The notes: a model not told the origin generated them from the sequence alone. DNA of 64,000 nucleotides from an archaeon (GCA_043814055.1 JBDRKL010000012.1:8596-72595); one strand, 5' to 3'; numbered from the stretch's first letter, positions 41,276-52,109 are shown. Translations and numbers: made by a program.

Positions 41276-41824
41276 ATGAAGCTCATTGTTGGAGTCACAG
41301 GAGCGTCTGGAATGCCTCTAGCCCAGCGGCTGCTTGAAGTTCTCGCTGAGAAAAAGGTTGAGGTTCATTTGATTGTTTCTGAGAGCGCGAAGAAAGTTAT
41401 GGAGTTTGAGGAAACCAAGCTGGAGAATTTGGAGAAACTCGCTGCGGAAGTTCACAATGAGAAAGATATTTCGGCTTCAATCGCGTCCGGCTCGTTCAAG
41501 ACGGACGGTATGGTTGTGATTCCGTGCAGCATGAAAACCATTGGCGGCTTGGCGTCGGGCTACTCGGACAATTTGATTCTGCGCGCAGGGGATGTTTGTC
41601 TTAAGCAGGACAGGAAATTAATTCTTGTGCCGCGGGAGACTCCGCTGAGTTATATTCACTTGAAGAACTTGACCACACTGAAACAGGCCGGAGCTGTGAT
41701 TCTGCCGCCGGTGGTGGCGTTCTACCAGAAGCCGCGCACTTTGGAGGATATGACAGATTTTATAATAGGCAAAGTCTTAGATTCGCTTGAGATTGAACAT
41801 AAACTATACGAGAGGTGGAAGTAA
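41276..41824 (+). CDS. ubiX: flavin prenyltransferase UbiX (makes prenyl-FMN for UbiD enzymes)
   Basis: 182 aa with VGVTGASG and VVIPCSMKTIGGLASG. Confidence 0.88.
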   Translation: MKLIVGVTGASGMPLAQRLLEVLAEKKVEVHLIVSESAKKVMEFEETKLENLEKLAAEVHNEKDISASIASGSFKTDGMVVIPCSMKTIGGLASGYSDNLILRAGDVCLKQDRKLILVPRETPLSYIHLKNLTTLKQAGAVILPPVVAFYQKPRTLEDMTDFIIGKVLDSLEIEHKLYERWK

Positions 41825-43081
41825 ATGAAACCATTGAACTTTCAACAGGCAGTTGAGAAGCTCCGCGAGAAAGGAATGCTTGAGGTTGTTTCAGAAGAGC
41901 GCAGCATTGGAGAAATCGCTGAGAAGATTAAGGACTTGAAGCCGATTCTTTTTGAGAATACCGGGACAGATTATAAGGTTGCTGCGAACGTTTGTGGCAA
42001 GGAACTTTTTGAAGCTTACTTTGACGCGCCTTGGAAAGATATCCGCGCGCAGTTTGGGAAAGCTGCTGGAAGTCCTGGCACGGTTGAAGCAACTGACGAG
42101 TTTCCGTTTGAGGAAACCGATGATGATTTTGAAAGCCTGCCGATTCCAATGTACTACAAAGGCGACGGCGGGAAATACATCACTGCAGGGGTTTTCGTGA
42201 TTGAGCAGGATGGGGTGAGGAATTTGTCTTATCACAGGACTATGATTGTTGACGGCAAGACCGCGGTTGTGCGGTTGTGCAAGAGGCATTTGTGGGACGC
42301 GTATGAGAAGAATGGGAATGAATTGGATGTGGCGATTTGCATTGGATTAGATCCTGCGCTTCTTTCAGTTGCATCTTTCTCCACCAAGGAGCCGATGGAT
42401 GAGACTGAGATTGCAGCAGGGTTCTATGAACAGCCGCTGAAGATGGTCAAGATGAGCAACGGGATTTCAGTTCCGCGCTGTGCAGAGATTGTGATTCTTG
42501 GAAAGATTACAAAAGAGCAGGCAAAGGAAGGGCCATTTGTTGACTCAACCGGAACTATGGACGGGGAGAGGCAGCAACCGGTGTTCAAACTTGAGAAAGT
42601 TCTGCGCAAGAAAGATGCGATATTCTATGCACTCGTGCCAGGCCGCGGAGAGCACTCATTCCTGATGGGTGTGAGCAAGGAGCCGATTTTGTTCAACGAG
42701 ATTGCAAAGGTCGCGGACATTCAGGATATTTCATTCGCAGACGGCGGGATAGAATGGATGGGCGCTGTGGTGAGCATCAAGAAGAAGTCTGATGCTGATG
42801 TGAAGAAAGTTATTGAAACCGCGTTCGCTACACACAAGAGCCTGAAGCACGTCTGGGTGTTTGATGAGGACATTGACCTGCTGAACCATATGGACCGCGA
42901 ATGGGCGTTCACTACGCGGTTCCAGGGCGACAAGGACATTTACACTTATCCAGGCGAGCCAGGGTCAAGCCTTGACCCGAGCTCAGAGCCAGGTGATGAC
43001 AGGAGAAATACGTGCAAGGTTGGGTTTGACTGTACGATACCGATGGGGAAGGACAAGAAGGACTTTGAGAAGGTGGCGTGA
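41825..43081 (+). CDS. UbiD-family decarboxylase, candidate trans-anhydromevalonate-5-phosphate decarboxylase
   Basis: 418 aa with UbiD-like architecture. It starts 1 nt after the ubiX stop. The functional call rests on clustering with MVK, AcnX L/S and IPK. Confidence 0.7.
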   Translation: MKPLNFQQAVEKLREKGMLEVVSEERSIGEIAEKIKDLKPILFENTGTDYKVAANVCGKELFEAYFDAPWKDIRAQFGKAAGSPGTVEATDEFPFEETDDDFESLPIPMYYKGDGGKYITAGVFVIEQDGVRNLSYHRTMIVDGKTAVVRLCKRHLWDAYEKNGNELDVAICIGLDPALLSVASFSTKEPMDETEIAAGFYEQPLKMVKMSNGISVPRCAEIVILGKITKEQAKEGPFVDSTGTMDGERQQPVFKLEKVLRKKDAIFYALVPGRGEHSFLMGVSKEPILFNEIAKVADIQDISFADGGIEWMGAVVSIKKKSDADVKKVIETAFATHKSLKHVWVFDEDIDLLNHMDREWAFTTRFQGDKDIYTYPGEPGSSLDPSSEPGDDRRNTCKVGFDCTIPMGKDKKDFEKVA

Positions 43082-43881
43082 GGATGGATTTGCATAGTGA
43101 GACAGCAAATGAGCAAAAACGGCTTGAGTACCTGAGAGGCATTCTTCAAAAACTTGAAAAATGCCAGGGATATTGGGAAAAAGTAGCAAGTGCTGTTGTA
43201 GATTCAAATAAATACAAAATTGGTGCATTTTTAAAAGAGAATAAAGAGCTGGGACGGGATGTCGAACAGATTATGATTACAGAGCTGAACGACGACCCTG
43301 GACTAAACAACGGTAATTACCTGTGGATGCTAAAGCTCACATATAAATTATATGAGGAGATTAATAGGATACTAGGGAAGGCGGACTCAGACGAGATTAC
43401 TAATATAGATGCAGATGCGAAAATTAAGAGTTTGTACCGCAGGACGAAGATGTTGCGGGTAAAGGAACTTCGAAAAATCAAGACACGCCCTGTGCCGGAA
43501 TCTGCGCATGGAATGACATTAGAACTTTTGAAAGCACTCAACAAGGAAATTTCTAGAATCACTGAGGAAATAGAAAGGGAACAGAACAAGCTTGAAAAAC
43601 TTGAGAATAGGCGGAAGAAGGCATCCTTGACGAAGAAAAGGAAACCCAAAACCCCTGAGAAACTCCACCCAAAAGGTATGGAGCTTGAGGATCTCCGCGC
43701 TCTTGTTTTGAAAAAATACCAGTGGTACATGAGGTATATGAACGACGAGCAGGAGTTCCCAAGCTTCACAGAAGATAGTATAAAGAATGCGGAAAAAAAG
43801 TATACGTTGGTGGATATGAACAAGGAGATGGACTTCCTGCTTAAGCACAAGAGCAGGAAGGATTTTGAAGAGGAAGCGTAG
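43078..43881 (+). CDS. hypothetical Lys/Glu-rich coiled-coil protein (267 aa) inserted between the UbiD-type gene and mvk
   Basis: GTGA overlap with the UbiD stop (or ATG at 43084). Its stop lies 1 nt before the mvk ATG. It is markedly A/T-rich relative to flanks (hand count 43141-43260 about 33% GC versus 55% for 42961-43020). Confidence 0.6.
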   Translation: MRMDLHSETANEQKRLEYLRGILQKLEKCQGYWEKVASAVVDSNKYKIGAFLKENKELGRDVEQIMITELNDDPGLNNGNYLWMLKLTYKLYEEINRILGKADSDEITNIDADAKIKSLYRRTKMLRVKELRKIKTRPVPESAHGMTLELLKALNKEISRITEEIEREQNKLEKLENRRKKASLTKKRKPKTPEKLHPKGMELEDLRALVLKKYQWYMRYMNDEQEFPSFTEDSIKNAEKKYTLVDMNKEMDFLLKHKSRKDFEEEA

Positions 43882-43882
43882 C

Positions 43883-44854
43883 ATGGCAGAAGGCAGTGGC
43901 TTTGGAAAAGTGATTTTGTTCAACGAGCACTTCGTTGTTTATGGAGTTCCAGCTATTGCGAGCGCGATTTCTAACAAGACTGTTGCAAAGGTTACTGAAG
44001 CTGAGAGCCTGAAGCCGAGTGGCAACGAGGGCTCAATGGTCGGGAACGGCTGGGTGCTTGAGGACAACAGGGATGCGAACGAGGGCTATAAAACCAAGAA
44101 GCTTGAGCACCAGAAAGAATCAATTGAGCTTGTCCTGAACGCTGCAGATTTTATTGCAGATGAAACTCCAATTAAGATTGAGCTCGGCGGGGACTTGAAA
44201 GCCGTGGGCGGAGTTGGGGCGAGCGCTGCGGTCTGCGTTTCAATCGCGCGGGCTTTGAGCAAGGAATTTGAACTGGGCTTTGATGATGATAAAATAAATG
44301 AGATTGCCTATGAAGGAGAAAAAGCATATGCTGGAACCCCTAGCGGGATTGACAACACTGCTTCAACTTATGGCGGGCTTCTGTGGTTTGTGAAGAATAC
44401 TGAGGGCGGGGCTAACACAATGGATTTGATGGAGCTCAAGGAGCCTTTGGAAATTGTGATGGGAAATACTGGGATTACTACTGATACCAAAGCAGCGGTT
44501 GAGGGAGTTCGGGAAAGGAAAGAGGGGAATCCTGAGTATGAGAAAATATTTGCGCGGGCGCACGAGCTTGGGAAAGAAGCGCTCATCGCGTTGAATGATT
44601 TTAATTTGGAGAAAGTTGGGGCGTTGATGAATGAGAATCACGGAATGCTTCAGAAGATTGGAGTTTCGCACGAGAAGCTTGACGAGCTCGTGGAAATTGC
44701 GCAGGAGAACGGAGCTCTTGGAGCGAAGATGACTGGCGGCGGAATGGGCGGATATATGCTTGCGCTTACTCCGGGCAAGGAACTGCAGGAGAAAGTTGCG
44801 AAGGCGATGGAAGACACGGGTTATGAAGCTTTGAGGACTAAGATTGGGGTTTAA
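43883..44854 (+). CDS. mvk: mevalonate kinase
   Basis: Trimmed to MAEGSGFGKVILFNEHFVVYG (GHMP motif I). Motif II VGGVGASAAV, catalytic SGIDNTASTYGG, motif III GAKMTGGGMGG. Confidence 0.85.
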   Translation: MAEGSGFGKVILFNEHFVVYGVPAIASAISNKTVAKVTEAESLKPSGNEGSMVGNGWVLEDNRDANEGYKTKKLEHQKESIELVLNAADFIADETPIKIELGGDLKAVGGVGASAAVCVSIARALSKEFELGFDDDKINEIAYEGEKAYAGTPSGIDNTASTYGGLLWFVKNTEGGANTMDLMELKEPLEIVMGNTGITTDTKAAVEGVRERKEGNPEYEKIFARAHELGKEALIALNDFNLEKVGALMNENHGMLQKIGVSHEKLDELVEIAQENGALGAKMTGGGMGGYMLALTPGKELQEKVAKAMEDTGYEALRTKIGV

Positions 44855-46048
44855 ATGAACTTAACAAAAGACGAAGAGGCAATGCTCAATGGAGAGCATG
44901 GGAACGCGAAGAAAAAGTCAATGGAAATTCTAGTTGCGCTGGGGAAGATTTTTGGAGCTGAGCGGTTGATTCCTGTAAAGAGTGTTCAAGTTGCAGGGGT
45001 TTCATATTCAAATTTAGGCGAGCCAGGCTTGGAGTACTTGTCCGAGCTTGCGAAGGATGGTAAGGTTGAAGTTTTGACTACGCTGAATCCAGCAGGGATG
45101 GATTTGAAGAACTGGGAAGAATTGGGGTTTGCGCCTGAGTTTGCTGAGAAGCAGAAGCGAGTTATTAATGCGTTCACTGCGATGGGGATTCAAGCGACTT
45201 GCACCTGCACTCCTTATTTGATTGGTAACAAGCCAAAGCTTGGCGAGCACATTGCGTGGAGTGAGTCGAGCGCGGTGACTTATGCGAACTCTATGCTTGG
45301 CGCGAGGACTAATCGGGAAGGTGGGCCGAGCGCTTTGGCTGCGGCGCTGACTGGGAAAACGCCTGAGTATGGTTTGCACTTGGATGAGAACAGGAAACCG
45401 CATATTCATTTTAAGGTTGAAGTGAAATTGGAAAAGCTTTCGGACTATGGGGCTTTGGGCTATGCGATTGGACAGAAGTGCGAGAACAAGATTGCTTATA
45501 TCAGCGGCGTGGAAAAGCCGAGTGTGGATGAGCTCAAGACACTCTGTGCTTCGATTGTAACTTACGGAGCTCAGCCGATTTTCCATATGGAAGGGGTTAC
45601 ACCTGAAACTACAAACTACGAACTACCAACTACAAACTACACAATCACAGAGGCAGACATCAAAGAAGCCTACGAGGCGTTGACTGATGAAGGAACTGAT
45701 GTTGACTTTGTAAGTATTGGTTGTCCGCACGCGAGCATTGAGGAGATTGAAAAAGTTGCAGAGCTGTTGGAAGGTAAACAGGTTAAGGTTGATACTTGGA
45801 TTGCAACTGCGCGGCCTATCAAAGTTGAAGCAGACAAGTTGGGCTTTTCAAAAACTATTGAAGATGCAGGAGCGAAGTTTTCGTGCGATACCTGTATGGC
45901 AGTAGCTCCGCTCAAGGGCAGGTTCAAAACTTGTGCGACTACGAGCGCGAAGGCGTGCTACTACGCGAGGAACAAGAACGCGATGAAGATGCGGATTGGA
46001 AGCTTGGAGCAATGCATTGATGCGGCGGTGAGTGGGGAATGGAGATGA
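44855..46048 (+). CDS. aconitase-X (DUF521-like) catalytic subunit, candidate phosphomevalonate dehydratase large subunit
   Basis: 397 aa. The N-terminus LTKDEEAMLNGEHGNAKKKSMEILVALG is typical of the AcnX large subunit, with Cys residues for an Fe-S cluster. Operon context supports the call. Confidence 0.7.
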   Translation: MNLTKDEEAMLNGEHGNAKKKSMEILVALGKIFGAERLIPVKSVQVAGVSYSNLGEPGLEYLSELAKDGKVEVLTTLNPAGMDLKNWEELGFAPEFAEKQKRVINAFTAMGIQATCTCTPYLIGNKPKLGEHIAWSESSAVTYANSMLGARTNREGGPSALAAALTGKTPEYGLHLDENRKPHIHFKVEVKLEKLSDYGALGYAIGQKCENKIAYISGVEKPSVDELKTLCASIVTYGAQPIFHMEGVTPETTNYELPTTNYTITEADIKEAYEALTDEGTDVDFVSIGCPHASIEEIEKVAELLEGKQVKVDTWIATARPIKVEADKLGFSKTIEDAGAKFSCDTCMAVAPLKGRFKTCATTSAKACYYARNKNAMKMRIGSLEQCIDAAVSGEWR

Positions 46049-46335
46049 AAGAGCAGATAAAGAATTTCTTAATGCCGGATTTGAAGAGGGTTGTACTATT
46101 TTCCCTAATCAGTCTAGGCATGTATATTATAGCTTTTCATATTTTTAAGGGGTATTTAGCAACTTATGGCTACCCATTGCCATTCGGTTATGCTAAGACA
46201 GTGCCGGGAAGCATATTTGCAGGCCCATTGTATATAGCTTGGAGCATACCGAATATACTGGCGAATCTCTTGATTTATTACTTGATTGCGTGCCTATTTT
46301 CTTTTGCTTATGAGAATCTGCGAGGTTCAAAATGA
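46039..46335 (+). CDS. small hydrophobic protein (2-3 TM) between the two AcnX subunit genes
   Basis: 98 aa (or a start at 46045, giving an ATGA overlap with the upstream stop). Its end overlaps the downstream ATG by 4 nt. A/T-rich. Confidence 0.5.
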   Translation: MEMKEQIKNFLMPDLKRVVLFSLISLGMYIIAFHIFKGYLATYGYPLPFGYAKTVPGSIFAGPLYIAWSIPNILANLLIYYLIACLFSFAYENLRGSK

Positions 46336-46715
46336 AAGGCAGAACAATAGTTAAAGGAATCGCAGAAGGCATTGCCCTGGTCAGCCAAGAGCCCATCTCA
46401 TTCTACGGCGGAGTTGACCCGGACACTGGAATTGTGGTTGAAAAAGGGCATGCCCTTGAAGGAAAAGAACTGACTGGGAAGATTCTCGTGTTCCCGCAGG
46501 GCAAAGGGAGCACAGTCGGGTCCTATGTTATTTACGCGCTGAAGAAAAATGGCAAGGCGCCTGCGGCGATTGTTTGCAGGGAAACCGAGACCATTGTCGC
46601 GGTCGGGGCGATTATCGCAGAGATTCCAATGGTGGATAAAGTAGATATATCAGGAATTAATAGTGGCGATAAGCTTAAAGTGGATGGAGACCAAGGGGAA
46701 GTAATCATATTATGA
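46332..46715 (+). CDS. aconitase-X swivel (DUF126-like) subunit, candidate phosphomevalonate dehydratase small subunit
   Basis: 127 aa with GRTIVKGIAEG.ALVS.EPISFYGGVDP.TG and LVFPQGKGSTVGSYV. Confidence 0.7.
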   Translation: MKGRTIVKGIAEGIALVSQEPISFYGGVDPDTGIVVEKGHALEGKELTGKILVFPQGKGSTVGSYVIYALKKNGKAPAAIVCRETETIVAVGAIIAEIPMVDKVDISGINSGDKLKVDGDQGEVIIL

Positions 46716-47620
46716 TAAAAGCATCTGCACCTTCAAAATTAATGCTGTTTGGGGAGCACGCGCTACTCTACGGCGAGCCCGCGATAGCCACTGCGGTTGA
46801 CAAGCGGGCGCACGTCACAGCCTGCGAACTTGAAAAGCCGCGGATTGTGATTGAGCGCAAGGAATCAGATGAGAGCATAGATATTTCTATCAAAGACAAG
46901 TCAGACCACCCAATTGCAAAAGCTGTCCAGGCAACGTTGAAGCACCTTAACAAGAATGTCGGCATTGGAATTGAAATTGACAACGGCGTCACGGACAGCG
47001 CTGCCATAATCAGCGCGACCACGGGCGCAGTGATGAAGCTTCTTACTGACAACTTGATAAAGCCCGAGGTGGCTGAGGTCTCGTATGAAACAGGAAAACT
47101 GCTGAACAACGGAACGAATGGCATAGACAGCACTGTCACGACTTTTGGGGGCACTGTCATGTTTGAGAAGGGGCAGGGCAGGACTGTTCCAATTCATAAT
47201 GACCTGAGCTTTGTCATAGGAGACACAGGAATAAGGAGCGACCCGAACGAGCTTATTGCAAAAATAAAGACAGTGGCGGAGGACCCAAAAGTTGCGCTCA
47301 TGGTATTCAGCATCGGCTCGCTTGTGCGGCGCGCGAATAACGCGCTCATAGCAGGGAACCCGCTTGAGATTGGCCGTCTGATGGATATGAACCACGTGTT
47401 TCTCAGGAATCTTGGCGTGAGCAACCAGTCGCTGGAAAACATAATTGAAGCGGCGAAGGAGACCGGCGCATTCGGAGCCAAGATAACAGGGACAGGCGGC
47501 GAGGGCACGGTAATTGCGCTCACAGACAAGCCAAACGAAGTTGCAAAGGCGATGAAAGAGGCGGGAGCAGTGAAAGCATTCTCAATAAAAAGCAACCAGG
47601 AGGGAGTGAGAATTGAATAA
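46712..47620 (+). CDS. second GHMP-kinase-fold protein, MVK-like but with degenerate phosphate-binding loops
   Basis: 302 aa. Motif I is intact (APSKLMLFGEHALLYG) and the catalytic NGIDSTVTTFGG is intact. Motif II reads DNGVTDSAA instead of PxGSGLGSSAA, and motif III reads TGTGGEG. Confidence 0.7.
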   Translation: MIKASAPSKLMLFGEHALLYGEPAIATAVDKRAHVTACELEKPRIVIERKESDESIDISIKDKSDHPIAKAVQATLKHLNKNVGIGIEIDNGVTDSAAIISATTGAVMKLLTDNLIKPEVAEVSYETGKLLNNGTNGIDSTVTTFGGTVMFEKGQGRTVPIHNDLSFVIGDTGIRSDPNELIAKIKTVAEDPKVALMVFSIGSLVRRANNALIAGNPLEIGRLMDMNHVFLRNLGVSNQSLENIIEAAKETGAFGAKITGTGGEGTVIALTDKPNEVAKAMKEAGAVKAFSIKSNQEGVRIE

Positions 47621-48407
47621 CGGAAAGGATTTAGTTTTCATAAAGCTGGGAGGTTCTGCAATAACTTTCAAGGACCAGCCAGGGAAGGCGAATTTTAAAG
47701 TGCTTGACAGGAGCGCGGCGGAGATTGCAGAAATTGCCATAGATTATAATTTATTGGTCGGCCACGGCGGAGGTTCGTTTCCGCACCCGGTCGCACAGGA
47801 GTACAAGGTGCAGGAGGGAATTAAGATATGCGGAACAAAAGGATTCGTGGAGACGCAGAATGCGGTGCGCAAGATTAACTCTCTCGTGGTGAAGAGTCTT
47901 GTGGACAAGGGAGTTCCTGTTGTTCCTATACAAACCTCCGCGTGCGCTGTGATGTCAAAGGGCGAGATAACCGAGATGTATCTTGACCCGATAAAAGAGG
48001 CGTTAAAGAACAGGATGGTTCCTGTGCTAAATGGGGACGTGCTATTTGACCTGACAACAGGCTGCGGCATAGCTTCCACTGAGATGATATTTAATTACCT
48101 TGCGAAAAAGCTCGGGCCAAAGCGCATCATACTTGGGGCGAATGTTGACGGGGTTTACGCAGGCGGGGCTGATGGCGGCAAGCTCATAGCAAGAATAGAC
48201 AAGAACAACAAGCGGAAAATTATTGAAGAACTTAAAGAAGTTGAGCCAGCAGTCCCGGATGTTACTGGAAGCATGGCTCACAAGGTTGAAGAGCTTTATA
48301 ATTTGAGCAAACTGGATATTGGAATACAAATAGTAAACATGCTGAAGGAGGGGTACCTGAAAAGGGCAGTGCAAGGCGAGCACCTGGGCACTATTATTCA
48401 CGTGTAA
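47613..48407 (+). CDS. ipk: isopentenyl phosphate kinase
   Basis: 264 aa from a TTG start, amino-acid-kinase fold with VFIKLGGSAITFK and VGHGGGSFPH. Confidence 0.85.
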   Translation: MNNGKDLVFIKLGGSAITFKDQPGKANFKVLDRSAAEIAEIAIDYNLLVGHGGGSFPHPVAQEYKVQEGIKICGTKGFVETQNAVRKINSLVVKSLVDKGVPVVPIQTSACAVMSKGEITEMYLDPIKEALKNRMVPVLNGDVLFDLTTGCGIASTEMIFNYLAKKLGPKRIILGANVDGVYAGGADGGKLIARIDKNNKRKIIEELKEVEPAVPDVTGSMAHKVEELYNLSKLDIGIQIVNMLKEGYLKRAVQGEHLGTIIHV

Positions 48408-48408
48408 A

Positions 48409-49458
48409 ATGGCAAGCAAAACTGAGAACAGAAAACTGGACCACATCAACATATGCTCTGATGAGGGCGTTGAGGCGAAGGAGAAGAGCACAATGCTTGA
48501 GCTCGTGGACTTTGTGCACGAGGCGCTTCCTGAGATAAATATTGATGAAATTGATTTGTCAGTTGAGCTGTTCGGGAAAAAACTCAACGCGCCAATCATA
48601 ATCAGCGCAATGACCGGCGGGCACGCAGTAGCTGAAAAAATAAACAAAAACCTCGCGAAGGCGGCGCAGAAGCTCGGGGTCGGGTTTGGGGTTGGCTCGC
48701 AGAGGGCGATGATTGAGGATGAAAAGCTCGCATACACTTACCAGGTGCGGGATGTTGCACCGGACATACTTGTGATTGGGAATATTGGCGCGCCACAGAT
48801 TCGCGAATATGAAAAAGGCGAGGTGCAGAAAGCGGTTGAGGATATTGAAGCGGATGTTCTCGCAGTGCACTTGAACGCATTGCAGGAAGTGATACAGCCG
48901 GAGGGCGACACGGATTTCAAGGGATTCGCTGATGATATTGGAAAGCTTGTGAAGAAAATGAAAGTGCCGGTGATTGTAAAGGAAACCGGAGCTGGAATTT
49001 CAAAAGAGGCGGCTAAAGAGCTGATAGAAAAAGGAGTCGCAGGCATAGACACTGGCGGGGCAGGAGGAACTTCCTTCGCAGCGGTTGAATACAAGCGGAC
49101 CAAGGGAAAGGACACGGGCTTGTGGGACTGGGGCATACCAACCGCAGCCTCAATACTTGAGGTCAGGAGCGTTTCAAAAGACATCCCGCTTATTGCAACA
49201 GGAGGAATACGGACAGGGATGAGTGTTGCAAAGACGATTGCGCTCGGCGCGGACGCGGCGGGAATTGGATTGCCTCTGCTCAACGCGGCAAGGGAAAGCT
49301 CGGAGAAAGTTGAGGAAGAGCTTGAAAAAATAATTGACAGCCTGAAAAAAGCCATGTTCCTGACAGGTTCTGCCAGCTTGGGAGAATTGAAGAAGAAAAA
49401 AATTGTCCTCAAAGGCGAACTATATAACTGGGCAGTGCAAAGGGGGCTGAATGGCTAA
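48409..49458 (+). CDS. fni: type 2 (FMN-dependent) isopentenyl-diphosphate delta-isomerase
   Basis: 349 aa with IIISAMTGG, VKETGAGIS, GGAGGTSFA and ATGGIRTG. Confidence 0.9.
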   Translation: MASKTENRKLDHINICSDEGVEAKEKSTMLELVDFVHEALPEINIDEIDLSVELFGKKLNAPIIISAMTGGHAVAEKINKNLAKAAQKLGVGFGVGSQRAMIEDEKLAYTYQVRDVAPDILVIGNIGAPQIREYEKGEVQKAVEDIEADVLAVHLNALQEVIQPEGDTDFKGFADDIGKLVKKMKVPVIVKETGAGISKEAAKELIEKGVAGIDTGGAGGTSFAAVEYKRTKGKDTGLWDWGIPTAASILEVRSVSKDIPLIATGGIRTGMSVAKTIALGADAAGIGLPLLNAARESSEKVEEELEKIIDSLKKAMFLTGSASLGELKKKKIVLKGELYNWAVQRGLNG

Positions 49459-50341
49459 GAAAAAGGGCGTGGAGAAGATAGAGGTTACACTTGCGGAGAA
49501 GGCAAAAACGCTCATTGAGATAACCCGGCCGGTGAACTGCGGAATGATAGGAATTTCAGTTGCCATCGCAATGTGGGTTGGGTTTGGAGGAATGCCTCTG
49601 TTTGTCCTGCTGATTGCTGCGCTGGTGGCTGCGATAGGCATAAACGCCGCAGGGAACGCGCTTAATGATTATTATGACATTGATATTGACAGGATAAACA
49701 AACCGGGCAAGGCGCTTCCATCAGGGAAGATAACCAAGGTTGGGCTTTGGATTTATGCCACTTTGTTGTTCGCTATGGGAAATACGGTTGCGATGCTCTA
49801 CTTGACCAAAATCCCAATAATAATTGCAGTAATTAATTCTGTCCTCCTCATAGTCTATGCGATAAAAGTCAAGAAGTCAGGATTCCTGGGGAACATAATG
49901 ATAAGCTACCTTGTTGCTTCTGTGTTTGCGTTCGCGGCCGCGGTTGTTGACGCGCTCATGATAGGAATATTCCTTTCAATAGCTGCGTTCTTCACGAATG
50001 CAGCACGTGAAATTCTGAAGGACCTTGAGGATGTCAGGGGGGACGAGCTTGGCGGAGCGCAGACGCTTCCGCTAGCAGAGGGCGGCAAAAAGACCATGAT
50101 AGTTGTTGCGTCATTCCTGATACTCGCGATAATATTGAGCCCGCTGCCATACCTGCTTGAAATACTTTCAATGTACTACATAGCAATAATACTCGTGGCT
50201 GACACAATATTGCTCGGTGTGATATACTCAGTCCTGAATAAGCGGACAAGAAAAAGCGCCACGGTCAACCAGAGGCGCATAAAGTTCGCAGCGATAATAG
50301 GAATTCTCGCGTTCCTCGCGGGAACTGTTCCATGGCCATAA
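49451..50341 (+). CDS. UbiA-family prenyltransferase, digeranylgeranylglyceryl phosphate synthase-like
   Basis: 296 aa with ~8 TM and Asp-rich motifs NALNDYYDIDIDRINKP and KDLEDVRGDE. Confidence 0.8.
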   Translation: MAKKKGVEKIEVTLAEKAKTLIEITRPVNCGMIGISVAIAMWVGFGGMPLFVLLIAALVAAIGINAAGNALNDYYDIDIDRINKPGKALPSGKITKVGLWIYATLLFAMGNTVAMLYLTKIPIIIAVINSVLLIVYAIKVKKSGFLGNIMISYLVASVFAFAAAVVDALMIGIFLSIAAFFTNAAREILKDLEDVRGDELGGAQTLPLAEGGKKTMIVVASFLILAIILSPLPYLLEILSMYYIAIILVADTILLGVIYSVLNKRTRKSATVNQRRIKFAAIIGILAFLAGTVPWP

Positions 50342-51363
50342 ATGAAACCTGCACCCCAAGGATTGTGATAGAAAACAACGCATTAGATGGGATTGGCGAT
50401 ATTGTTGAGGGGGGCAGGGCGCTCATAGTTGCTGACGAAACCACAATGAGGGTTGCAGGAGACCGGGTAAAAAAAGCGCTTGAGGAAAAGGGAATTGATG
50501 TTAGCGTTTATTTTGCAAAGATTTCTGATGAGAAAACTGTTTCCGAGGCAGTGGATGCTGTGAAAGAATCAGGCGCTGAGATTGTTCTGGGAATTGGGGG
50601 AGGAACTTGCATAGACATTGCAAAACTTAGCTCGTTCAGGAATAACGTGCCGTTTATTTCAGTTCCGACATCTGCCGCGCACGATGGGATCTGCTCGCCA
50701 GTTGCCTCAATAAAGCAGGCAGACGGGCTGAAGTCATATCCGGCAAAGCCGCCGATTGCGGTTGTTGCTGATATTTTAATCATAAAAAATGCACCTGAGA
50801 AATTTTACGCTGCAGGTGTGGGGGATTTAATCGCGAATTTCACTGCCGTGGCTGACTGGGAATTGGCAAGAGATGAAAAGGGCGACGAGTTCAATGAGGA
50901 ATCTGCCGAGCTTTCAAGGAAGAGCGCGCAGGCGATTTTGGAGGCAATTGATTCGGTTGCGGAGCGGAGTGATGAGGGAGTAAGAATTGTTATGGATGCT
51001 CTAATCAAGTCAGGGGTTTCAATGTGCATGGCAGGCTCCAGCAGACCGTGCTCTGGGGCTGAGCACTTGTTCTCGCACAACTTGGACAAGATTGCAGGCT
51101 TTCCAGCACTGCACGGCGCCCAGTGCGGGGTCGGCGCGATATTGATGGCAAAACTGCACGGGCTTGACTGGGAAAAATACAAGGAAGTGCTTGAGAAGGT
51201 TGGGGCTCCGACCACTGCAAAAGAGCTTGGGGTGAGTGAGGGGCAAATCGTGCAGGCACTCGTTAGTGCACACATGCTCCGGGATAGGTACACAATACTA
51301 CACAAGGCGCCGTTGAACGAAGAAAAAGCTAAAGAACTAGCAAAGATTACAGGTGTAATATGA
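50332..51363 (+). CDS. egsA: sn-glycerol-1-phosphate dehydrogenase
   Basis: 343 aa with LGIGGGTCIDIAK, AAHDG and SGAEHLFSH (metal ligands of the G1PDH/Fe-ADH fold). Confidence 0.85.
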   Translation: MAINETCTPRIVIENNALDGIGDIVEGGRALIVADETTMRVAGDRVKKALEEKGIDVSVYFAKISDEKTVSEAVDAVKESGAEIVLGIGGGTCIDIAKLSSFRNNVPFISVPTSAAHDGICSPVASIKQADGLKSYPAKPPIAVVADILIIKNAPEKFYAAGVGDLIANFTAVADWELARDEKGDEFNEESAELSRKSAQAILEAIDSVAERSDEGVRIVMDALIKSGVSMCMAGSSRPCSGAEHLFSHNLDKIAGFPALHGAQCGVGAILMAKLHGLDWEKYKEVLEKVGAPTTAKELGVSEGQIVQALVSAHMLRDRYTILHKAPLNEEKAKELAKITGVI

Positions 51364-52109
51364 AAGACGTAAGGAAGCACATATTTGACAAGCTCAAGAA
51401 AGAGAAACTTGTATTCACATTGCTAGACCCTGAAAAGCTTGACGCGAAAGAGGCCGGAAAGCTCGCGAAGAAGCTTGAGGACATTGGGTCTGATGCCATA
51501 ATGCTCGGCGGCTCAACAACTGGCTCAATAGATGATGTTGCAAAGGCGGTTAAGGATGCAGTGAGCATTCCGATAATACTTTTCCCAAGCTCTGCGATGT
51601 CACTCTCAAAGCACGCGGATGCTGTGTTCTTCATGAGCCTGATAAACTCTGAGAAGATTGAATACCTGATGGGGGAGCAATTGAAGGGCTCACTAATGGT
51701 CAAGAATTATGGCTTGGAACCGATAGGAATGGGCTACATCGTGATAAATACTGGTGAGCCAACAATGGTTGAGAAGGTTGCACAGATAAGGCGGCTCACG
51801 AACAAGGAAGCGGTATCGTGCGCGCTAGCCGCTGAGTACTTCGGGATGAAAGTGGTCTACCTTGAGGCAGGATCCGGGGCGCAGAGCCCTGTGCCAGACA
51901 GCATGATAAGCGCTGTGAAAAAGGAGATTGGAGTGCCGCTCATAGTTGGCGGCGGAATAAACGGCCCGCTGATGGCCAAGAAGAAGCTTGAGGCAGGGGC
52001 TGACATTATTGTAATAGGCACTGTGATAGAAAAGGCGTACGCAAAGGCCGCTGAGATAATTGACATTGTAAAAAAAATCCCGGTTGAAAAGAAAGGATTG
52101 AAAAAATGA
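51360..52109 (+). CDS. geranylgeranylglyceryl phosphate synthase (PcrB/GGGPS family)
   Basis: 249 aa with TLLDPEK, IMLGGSTTG, VYLEAGSGA and LIVGGGI. Confidence 0.85.
   Translation: MKDVRKHIFDKLKKEKLVFTLLDPEKLDAKEAGKLAKKLEDIGSDAIMLGGSTTGSIDDVAKAVKDAVSIPIILFPSSAMSLSKHADAVFFMSLINSEKIEYLMGEQLKGSLMVKNYGLEPIGMGYIVINTGEPTMVEKVAQIRRLTNKEAVSCALAAEYFGMKVVYLEAGSGAQSPVPDSMISAVKKEIGVPLIVGGGINGPLMAKKKLEAGADIIVIGTVIEKAYAKAAEIIDIVKKIPVEKKGLKK

Follow-up and report, generated by a model that had tools for sequence, protein, structure and literature searches.

A mevalonate and lipid operon with two mevalonate kinase genes

The window analyzed here, C12:8596-72595, is a stretch of 64,000 nucleotides from a draft, metagenome-assembled genome (~1 Mb, 14 contigs, 82% complete). 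To judge by named homologues, the host is probably a DPANN archaeon of the phylum Undinarchaeota (Undinarchaeales-like); homologues of its mevalonate kinases (MVKs) are labelled 'Ca. Undinarchaeales' in G007 and G002, and 'Ca. Naiadarchaeales' in P0010. The mevalonate and lipid genes, located on a 153-kb contig, form a single plus-strand operon with overlap coupling, which extends from UbiX to GGGPS:

41276-41824, +, UbiX
41825-43081, +, UbiD-type decarboxylase
43078-43881, +, 267-aa ORF without family assignment
43883-44854, +, MVK_A, intact mevalonate kinase
44855-46048, +, AcnX large subunit
46039-46335, +, 98-aa membrane ORF
46332-46715, +, AcnX small subunit (phosphomevalonate dehydratase)
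46712-47620, +, MVK_B, 302 aa, nucleotide-binding site destroyed
47613-48407, +, isopentenyl phosphate kinase (IPK)
48409-49458, +, IDI2
49451-50341, +, UbiA-type prenyltransferase
50332-51363, +, G1P dehydrogenase
51360-52109, +, GGGPS

Thus, two MVK genes lie 1.9 kb apart in one operon. The ATG of MVK_B overlaps the stop codon of the AcnX small subunit (ATGA), while the TTG start of IPK (47613) and its GGAGG ribosome-binding site are embedded in the 3' end of MVK_B.

Genes encoding HMG-CoA synthase and HMG-CoA reductase were found outside the operon, elsewhere in the genome. No homologue of diphospho- or phosphomevalonate decarboxylase (MDD/PMD) was found in this genome or in the related family f4. 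As HMGS, HMGR, MVK_A, AcnX, UbiD/UbiX, IPK, and IDI2 are all present and MDD/PMD is missing, the archaeal (anhydromevalonate) route is complete. MVK_A retains all catalytic motifs, scores 228.8 bits against TIGR00549, and has a Leishmania-type MVK (2hfs) as its best solved relative; catalysis in the host is presumably performed by this protein. The possibility that MVK_B serves as the phosphomevalonate kinase of the classical route was rejected for this genome, as both MDD/PMD and the ATP site are absent.

Two ORFs of the operon could not be assigned to families. The 267-aa ORF between UbiD and MVK_A (43078-43881) is Lys/Glu-rich, with the GC content of 41% compared to ~49% in its neighbours, and has no match in Pfam or NCBIfam. 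In relatives, its place is taken by an LpdD-type chaperone, by a large unassigned ORF (696-752 aa), or by both, and no LpdD-like gene was seen beside UbiD in the window. The 98-aa ORF between the genes for the AcnX large and small subunits (46039-46335) is hydrophobic, has the GC content of 38% and no family match, and is missing from the corresponding place in L034, L053, G007, and G011. In L051, three extra ORFs are found between AcnX-S and MVK_B, including one encoding a Cys-rich, secreted-looking protein of 315 aa.

The genome also contains a third GHMP gene (G000:C7:76672-77451; L003 1390-2370, minus strand), which is HddA/fucokinase-like, unrelated to the mevalonate pathway, and adjoins UDP-glucose dehydrogenase-like and glycosyltransferase genes. 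It was considered as a further MVK paralogue and rejected as an HddA-like sugar kinase, and the same applies to the GHMP gene located upstream of the IPK-linked (B-type) MVK in family f5.

Fold, lesions, and conservation of MVK_B

The ORF at 46712-47620 on the plus strand is real and contains all motifs previously quoted for it: APSKLMLFGEHALLYG (residues 6-21, the N-terminal MVK motif), NGIDSTVTTFGG, DNGVTDSAA (residues 90-98), and TGTGGEG (residues 259-265). MVK_B passes the NCBIfam MVK model TIGR00549 with 174.9 bits (cut-off 163), its residues 1-302 align to positions 1-299 of 302 in PRK03926, and it aligns end-to-end with the Methanosarcina mazei MVK (6mde, E 2e-40). The N-terminal GHMP domain (Pfam GHMP_kinases_N) scores 20.3, under the cut-off of 22.3. 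The AlphaFold2 model built from the B-clade alignment (pLDDT 89.5, pTM 0.87) retains the GHMP/MVK fold, with TM scores of 0.87-0.89 to the M. mazei and M. burtonii MVKs in Foldseek. In place of the P-loop, however, the model has a mere five-residue link that joins strand 84-90 to helix 96-111. The functional sites of MVK_B are the following:

46724..46762, +, motif I on the mevalonate side (SAPSKLMLFGEHA); Lys9, Glu15, and His16 all kept
46973..47005, +, motif II, P-loop remnant EIDNGVTDSAA; six residues deleted, Gly replaced by Thr94, Ser by Asp95
47093..47095, +, Gly128 where the Mg-ATP Glu (E193 of rat MVK) is expected
47117..47152, +, NGIDSTVTTFGG (residues 136-147); catalytic Asp139 kept, Asn136 in place of Ser
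47480..47509, +, motif III, KITGTGGEGT; Gly264 replaced by Glu, Cys266 by Thr

The mevalonate-side residues defined by the M. mazei MVK structures, Lys9, His16, and Asp138 (PMC6283576), are all kept in MVK_B as K9, H16, and D139, together with E15. In general, MVK_B is collinear with this archaeal short-type enzyme (4HAC, 6MDE, 6MDF) over the full length at ~33-40% identity, and the two also share the linkage to ipk and idi2. The differences are that the P-loop of MVK_B has lost six residues together with the GLGSS core, Gly stands in for the Mg-binding Glu, Glu for a Gly of motif III, and Asn for Ser135. While the original prediction of the Gly loss and Asp gain in motif II, relative to PxGSGLGSSAA, is confirmed, the change goes beyond substitution, since the closest relatives have IEIDSxxPxxxGLGSSAA aligned to IEIDN------GVTDSAA in MVK_B. 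The predicted gain of Glu in motif III is equally real, and TGTGGEG departs from the expected glycine-rich loop GxGGGG. Given these sites, binding of Mg-ATP by MVK_B seems very unlikely.

To estimate how rare these changes are, we aligned 450 family proteins: the B clade, 120 MVKs of the A type, and the top 150 representatives retrieved when 1.84 billion proteins were searched exhaustively. The motif II loop has 12 residues in 442 of the 450 sequences and six residues in MVK_B only; the core GxG[SATG][SGTA] is missing in just six. Position 264 is Gly in 447 sequences and Glu in MVK_B only, 433 sequences have Glu or Asp at position 128, where MVK_B has Gly, and position 136 is Ser in 441, the replacement of Ser by Asn being common to MVK_B and its sister P0002 only. 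The combination of the loop deletion, Gly128, and GTGGEG is unique among the 450. This answers the concern that such loop substitutions could be common in active GHMP kinases, as the states seen in MVK_B are rare or unique.

The B clade itself is tiny: in the exhaustive search of representatives it yielded P0007 and P0009 only, after which the identity falls to 37%, with no closer sister of MVK_B. A scan of metagenome contigs with the B alignment produced distant MVKs only (30-38% identity) and no new close relatives among the matches listed. We found no report in the literature of MVKs that are degenerate or duplicated, either in Undinarchaeota or in other archaea.

MVK_B is 45-61% identical to its relatives, similar to the 50-59% observed for IPK. 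To describe how conservation is distributed along the protein, we considered 69 alignment columns invariant in ten intact B orthologues, 18 of which (motifs II and III, the Glu/Lys helix, and Ser136) form the nucleotide site. Outside this site MVK_B keeps 49 of 51 invariant columns (96%), compared to 11 of 18 inside (Fisher p=0.0008, with the ATP-site columns picked from known motifs, but after the alignment had been seen). P0002 keeps 50 of 51 columns outside and 11 of 18 inside (p=0.0002 in the same test). In the leave-one-out control, 84-100% of the columns that are invariant in the remaining sequences are retained by the intact sequence set aside. At variable columns, MVK_B matches the consensus in just 33% of cases. 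By this comparison, the predicted loss of the nucleotide site in MVK_B is targeted rather than protein-wide.

P0002, a full-length ORF on a 1.1-kb contig, is 55% identical to MVK_B and has lesions of its own: its P-loop reads GEDWRSAV, and six residues are deleted at the Glu/Lys helix. The lesions of the two proteins differ, with Ser136 to Asn as the sole common one. Different lesions at the same site indicate that the constraint on the nucleotide site had been lost before the two split, after which each lineage drifted separately in this site, the remainder of the protein being preserved.

Origin of the two kinases and altered B copies in related lineages

The order AcnX-L, AcnX-S, MVK_B, IPK, IDI2, UbiA is also observed in relatives that have the B-type gene only. 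In particular, the IPK-linked MVK is the sole MVK in f2 (G001, G005, G009), f5 (G004, G008, G012), and contigs L034 and L141. All B copies of the order group together in one fully supported clade (100%), and MVK_B falls inside it, with P0002 as its sister (96/94) and L051_B as the next branch (100/99). MVK_A belongs to a separate clade (96-100% support), among MVKs labelled Thermoplasmata, Methanomassiliicoccales, Hadesarchaea, and 'Euryarchaeota'.

MVK_A is 72% identical to the MVKs of contigs L054 and L136-L139, where an A-type MVK leads a MVK-UbiD-LpdD-AcnX-UbiX cluster. The UbiD proteins of these contigs are 37-40% identical to the window UbiD, and L21e, Rpb4, and DUF655 of L137 are 41-42% identical to the host proteins. 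For comparison, S17e and fibrillarin of L034, a relative from within the order, are 59-61% identical to those of the host, and Nop is 46% identical. The identity of 72% for MVK_A against ~41% for other L137 proteins, together with its placement in the tree, indicates that MVK_A is a horizontally acquired xenologue. Transfer of the whole block from the A-type MVK to AcnX was rejected, as AcnX-L is just 50-54% identical to its counterparts in the donor-like contigs, compared to 72% for MVK_A; for the same reason, the transfer signal is clear for MVK_A alone. Synteny and phylogeny together show MVK_B to be the vertically inherited orthologue from the syntenic mvk-ipk-idi2 locus, and MVK_A the horizontally transferred gene.

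These results modify the original prediction, which described MVK_B as a second MVK-like paralog next to a canonical MVK and pointed to its translational coupling between the AcnX small subunit and IPK. The intact MVK at 43883-44854 is indeed there, and the copies do fall into two distinct MVK clades, but the roles are opposite: the IPK-linked copy is the ancestral one and MVK_A is the newcomer, so 'paralog' is not the appropriate term. Similarly, the overlaps are real but nothing special to this copy, as the arrangement is ancestral for the entire order.

The arrangement with A followed by B is also present in five other assemblies. Among carriers of the A-type gene, three independent clades have an altered B. 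In the first, comprised of the window and P0002, the latter known from its 1.1-kb contig alone, the nucleotide site is lost. In f4 (G003, G007, G011), the catalytic Asp is replaced by Asn (D138N), and in L053 and P0206 the changes are K9M plus D138V. In these two clades the lesioned B copies are under strong purifying selection: dN/dS is 0.043 in f4 (G003 vs. G007), the lowest in the operon (0.093 for MVK_A, 0.113 for IPK), and 0.072 between L053 and P0206. Between MVK_B and L051, dS is saturated, and for the lineage of the window the sign of constraint is the column comparison described above.

L051 carries both the A-type gene and an intact B, hence replacement does not always inactivate B. 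In the B-only lineages, f2, f5, L034, and L141, B is intact. It is therefore suggestive that carrying A goes with a lesioned B, in three of four lineages compared to none of about five, although the independent lineages are few and the association is not strongly significant. For the canonical residue set, a careful tree requires five independent departures, two of which are not counted as dead copies. Family f3, with Asp replaced by Glu in B, was left out of the dead-copy count, as it has a different pathway and the replacement may retain activity. The other uncounted departure is a pair of B-clade MVKs from short contigs, P0008 and P0218, which have Lys9 replaced by Arg (SAPSRVILFGEHA), and their remaining motifs are intact.

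The marine f3 contains a tandem MVK-like pair (L037 6310-8235, L039 8225-10141, L140 4947-6939, and L142). In its IPK-linked gene the replacement of the catalytic Asp by Glu is clade-wide (TGVE), and one member also has Lys9 replaced by Gln. The IPK-linked gene is the better conserved of the pair (80-85% vs. 54-61% identity), and one of the two may be a phosphomevalonate kinase. The f3 cluster also contains a divergent AcnX, an MDD-like gene, and a HAD hydrolase. More generally, the lower mevalonate route is mosaic within the order, as seen in relatives G001-G012 and contigs L140 and L141: f1 (the family of this genome), f4, and G005 have AcnX without an MDD-like gene, while G001, G009, and f5 have an MDD/PMD-like gene without AcnX, possibly a haloarchaeal-type route. 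In L040 (713-2851; G011:C115), UbiD and MVK_A form one frame of 712 aa with masked or unknown residues, which could be either a real fusion or an assembly artefact.

Possible roles of MVK_B

Our preferred explanation, to which we assign a probability of about 60%, is that MVK_B has become a kinase-dead pseudoenzyme and is retained for a role outside catalysis, either ligand binding or scaffolding in the operon. We infer that it cannot bind Mg-ATP and has no kinase activity, and that its role requires the fold and probably the mevalonate cleft rather than phosphoryl transfer. This agrees with the original suggestion of a non-kinase subunit (regulatory, scaffold, or substrate-channelling). A non-kinase role, whether regulatory, scaffold, or ligand-binding, is the best-supported reading of the sequences, a normal ATP-dependent kinase being very unlikely.

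Under this explanation, MVK_B would have begun as a vertically inherited archaeal MVK at the conserved AcnX-mvk-ipk-idi2 position. Once the foreign intact MVK_A was acquired, selection on ATP-dependent phosphoryl transfer by MVK_B would have lapsed and its nucleotide site would have been dismantled: half of the P-loop is gone, acidic residues occupy the ATP-phosphate positions, and the Mg-binding Glu is lost. At the same time, purifying selection would have held the fold, Lys9, Glu15, His16, and Asp139, and nearly all other family-invariant positions. The retained role would most plausibly be binding of mevalonate or 5-phosphomevalonate, or service as a structural partner of the pathway enzymes. 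The damaged sub-sites vary among lineages, with the nucleotide site lost here and the catalytic dyad elsewhere. Ligand sensing is thus no more likely than a structural or partner-binding role, and the B copies need not have one ligand-binding role in common.

More tentatively, and in our opinion with somewhat less than even odds, the B-type MVK may have an indispensable second, ATP-independent function, exposed wherever a foreign MVK took over in Undinarchaeales. Such a function could be, for example, binding of mevalonate or 5-phosphomevalonate to feed or regulate AcnX or IPK, or holding the enzymes together.

Alternatively, MVK_B could be a redundant, functionless gene in slow decay, kept open by the short time elapsed or by the embedded start and ribosome-binding site of IPK. 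MVK_B has a terminal branch of 0.40-0.46, ~3-4 times the length found for the intact L051_B (0.15-0.17), a sign that the constraint is partly relaxed; moreover, it has accumulated several independent inactivating changes, and an intact MVK_A is available. Still, we consider decay unlikely. A decaying protein would not be expected to keep 96% of the invariant columns outside the nucleotide site while matching the consensus at only a third of the variable ones, and the need for translational coupling would not preserve the amino-acid sequence. The loss also seems to be old, as P0002 shares S136N and has independent lesions at the same site, yet both proteins are full-length. Finally, the lesioned B copies of the two other clades have dN/dS of 0.04-0.07.

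Even less probable is that MVK_B is still an enzyme, one that uses another phosphate donor or performs an ATP-independent reaction on mevalonate or phosphomevalonate. All substrate-side residues (Lys9, Glu15, His16, Asp139) are kept, the acidic residues gained, Asp95 and Glu264, might serve as metal ligands, and the pathway provides a precedent of an ATP-independent GHMP-fold enzyme, mevalonate-3,5-bisphosphate decarboxylase (PMC9254496). However, no new conserved motif replaces the P-loop, as NGVTDSAA in the window corresponds to GEDWRSAV in P0002, which also has the deletion in the Glu/Lys helix, and this weakens the earlier proposal of a kinase with a different donor or acceptor. In addition, the archaeal route is already complete and needs no extra step, and the loss of Lys9 or Asp138 in other A carriers speaks against a new catalytic use of this site shared by all. 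An artefact of assembly or binning, that is, sequencing errors or MVKs from two organisms, is highly improbable despite the draft state of the metagenome-assembled genome, as both genes belong to the same overlap-coupled operon of a 153-kb contig, the same architecture recurs in five other assemblies, and the more than nine changes are in-frame, with P0002 from another sample degenerating likewise.

A pseudoenzyme origin of MVK_B would resemble that of Gal3p of Saccharomyces, a GHMP galactokinase paralogue of Gal1p that has turned into a non-catalytic ligand sensor. Gal3p has lost catalysis via a small active-site deletion or substitutions, still binds ATP and galactose, and has Gal80 as its known partner. 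By analogy, MVK_B may be another catalysis-deficient GHMP copy kept by selection beside an active kinase for the same substrate. Unlike Gal3p, which binds ATP, MVK_B has lost the ATP site, and the active kinase beside it is a xenologue gained by horizontal transfer, not a duplicate.

Another system to compare is mevalonate-3,5-bisphosphate decarboxylase of Thermoplasmatales, which has lost both kinase activity and ATP binding, its former ATP pocket binding GGPP (PMC9254496). Like MVK_B, it has the GHMP fold, belongs to the mevalonate pathway, and lost the use of ATP in the course of pathway remodelling. However, it originated in the decarboxylase branch and kept the decarboxylase half-reaction, while MVK has no second half-reaction to keep. 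According to work cited in PMC6283576, the D204N/A replacements in the human and rat MVKs abolish activity but not substrate binding. The B copies of f4 and the L053 type are natural mimics of this Asp loss, whereas MVK_B keeps the catalytic Asp and has lost the nucleotide site instead.

In isoprenoid and archaeal lipid synthesis, MVK is usually regarded as an enzyme with a single job. That an apparently kinase-dead B has long persisted beside an imported MVK, both in this lineage and in no fewer than two others, points to a hidden role outside catalysis; within the recently discovered anhydromevalonate route, candidates are ligand sensing, hand-over of substrates, and assembly of a complex. 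The intact, dyad-less, and P-loop-less B copies provide a natural separation-of-function series. The case also serves as a warning for annotation: with a score above the NCBIfam equivalog cut-off, MVK_B would be called 'mevalonate kinase'. It is, moreover, a documented case of xenologous replacement inside a DPANN lipid operon.
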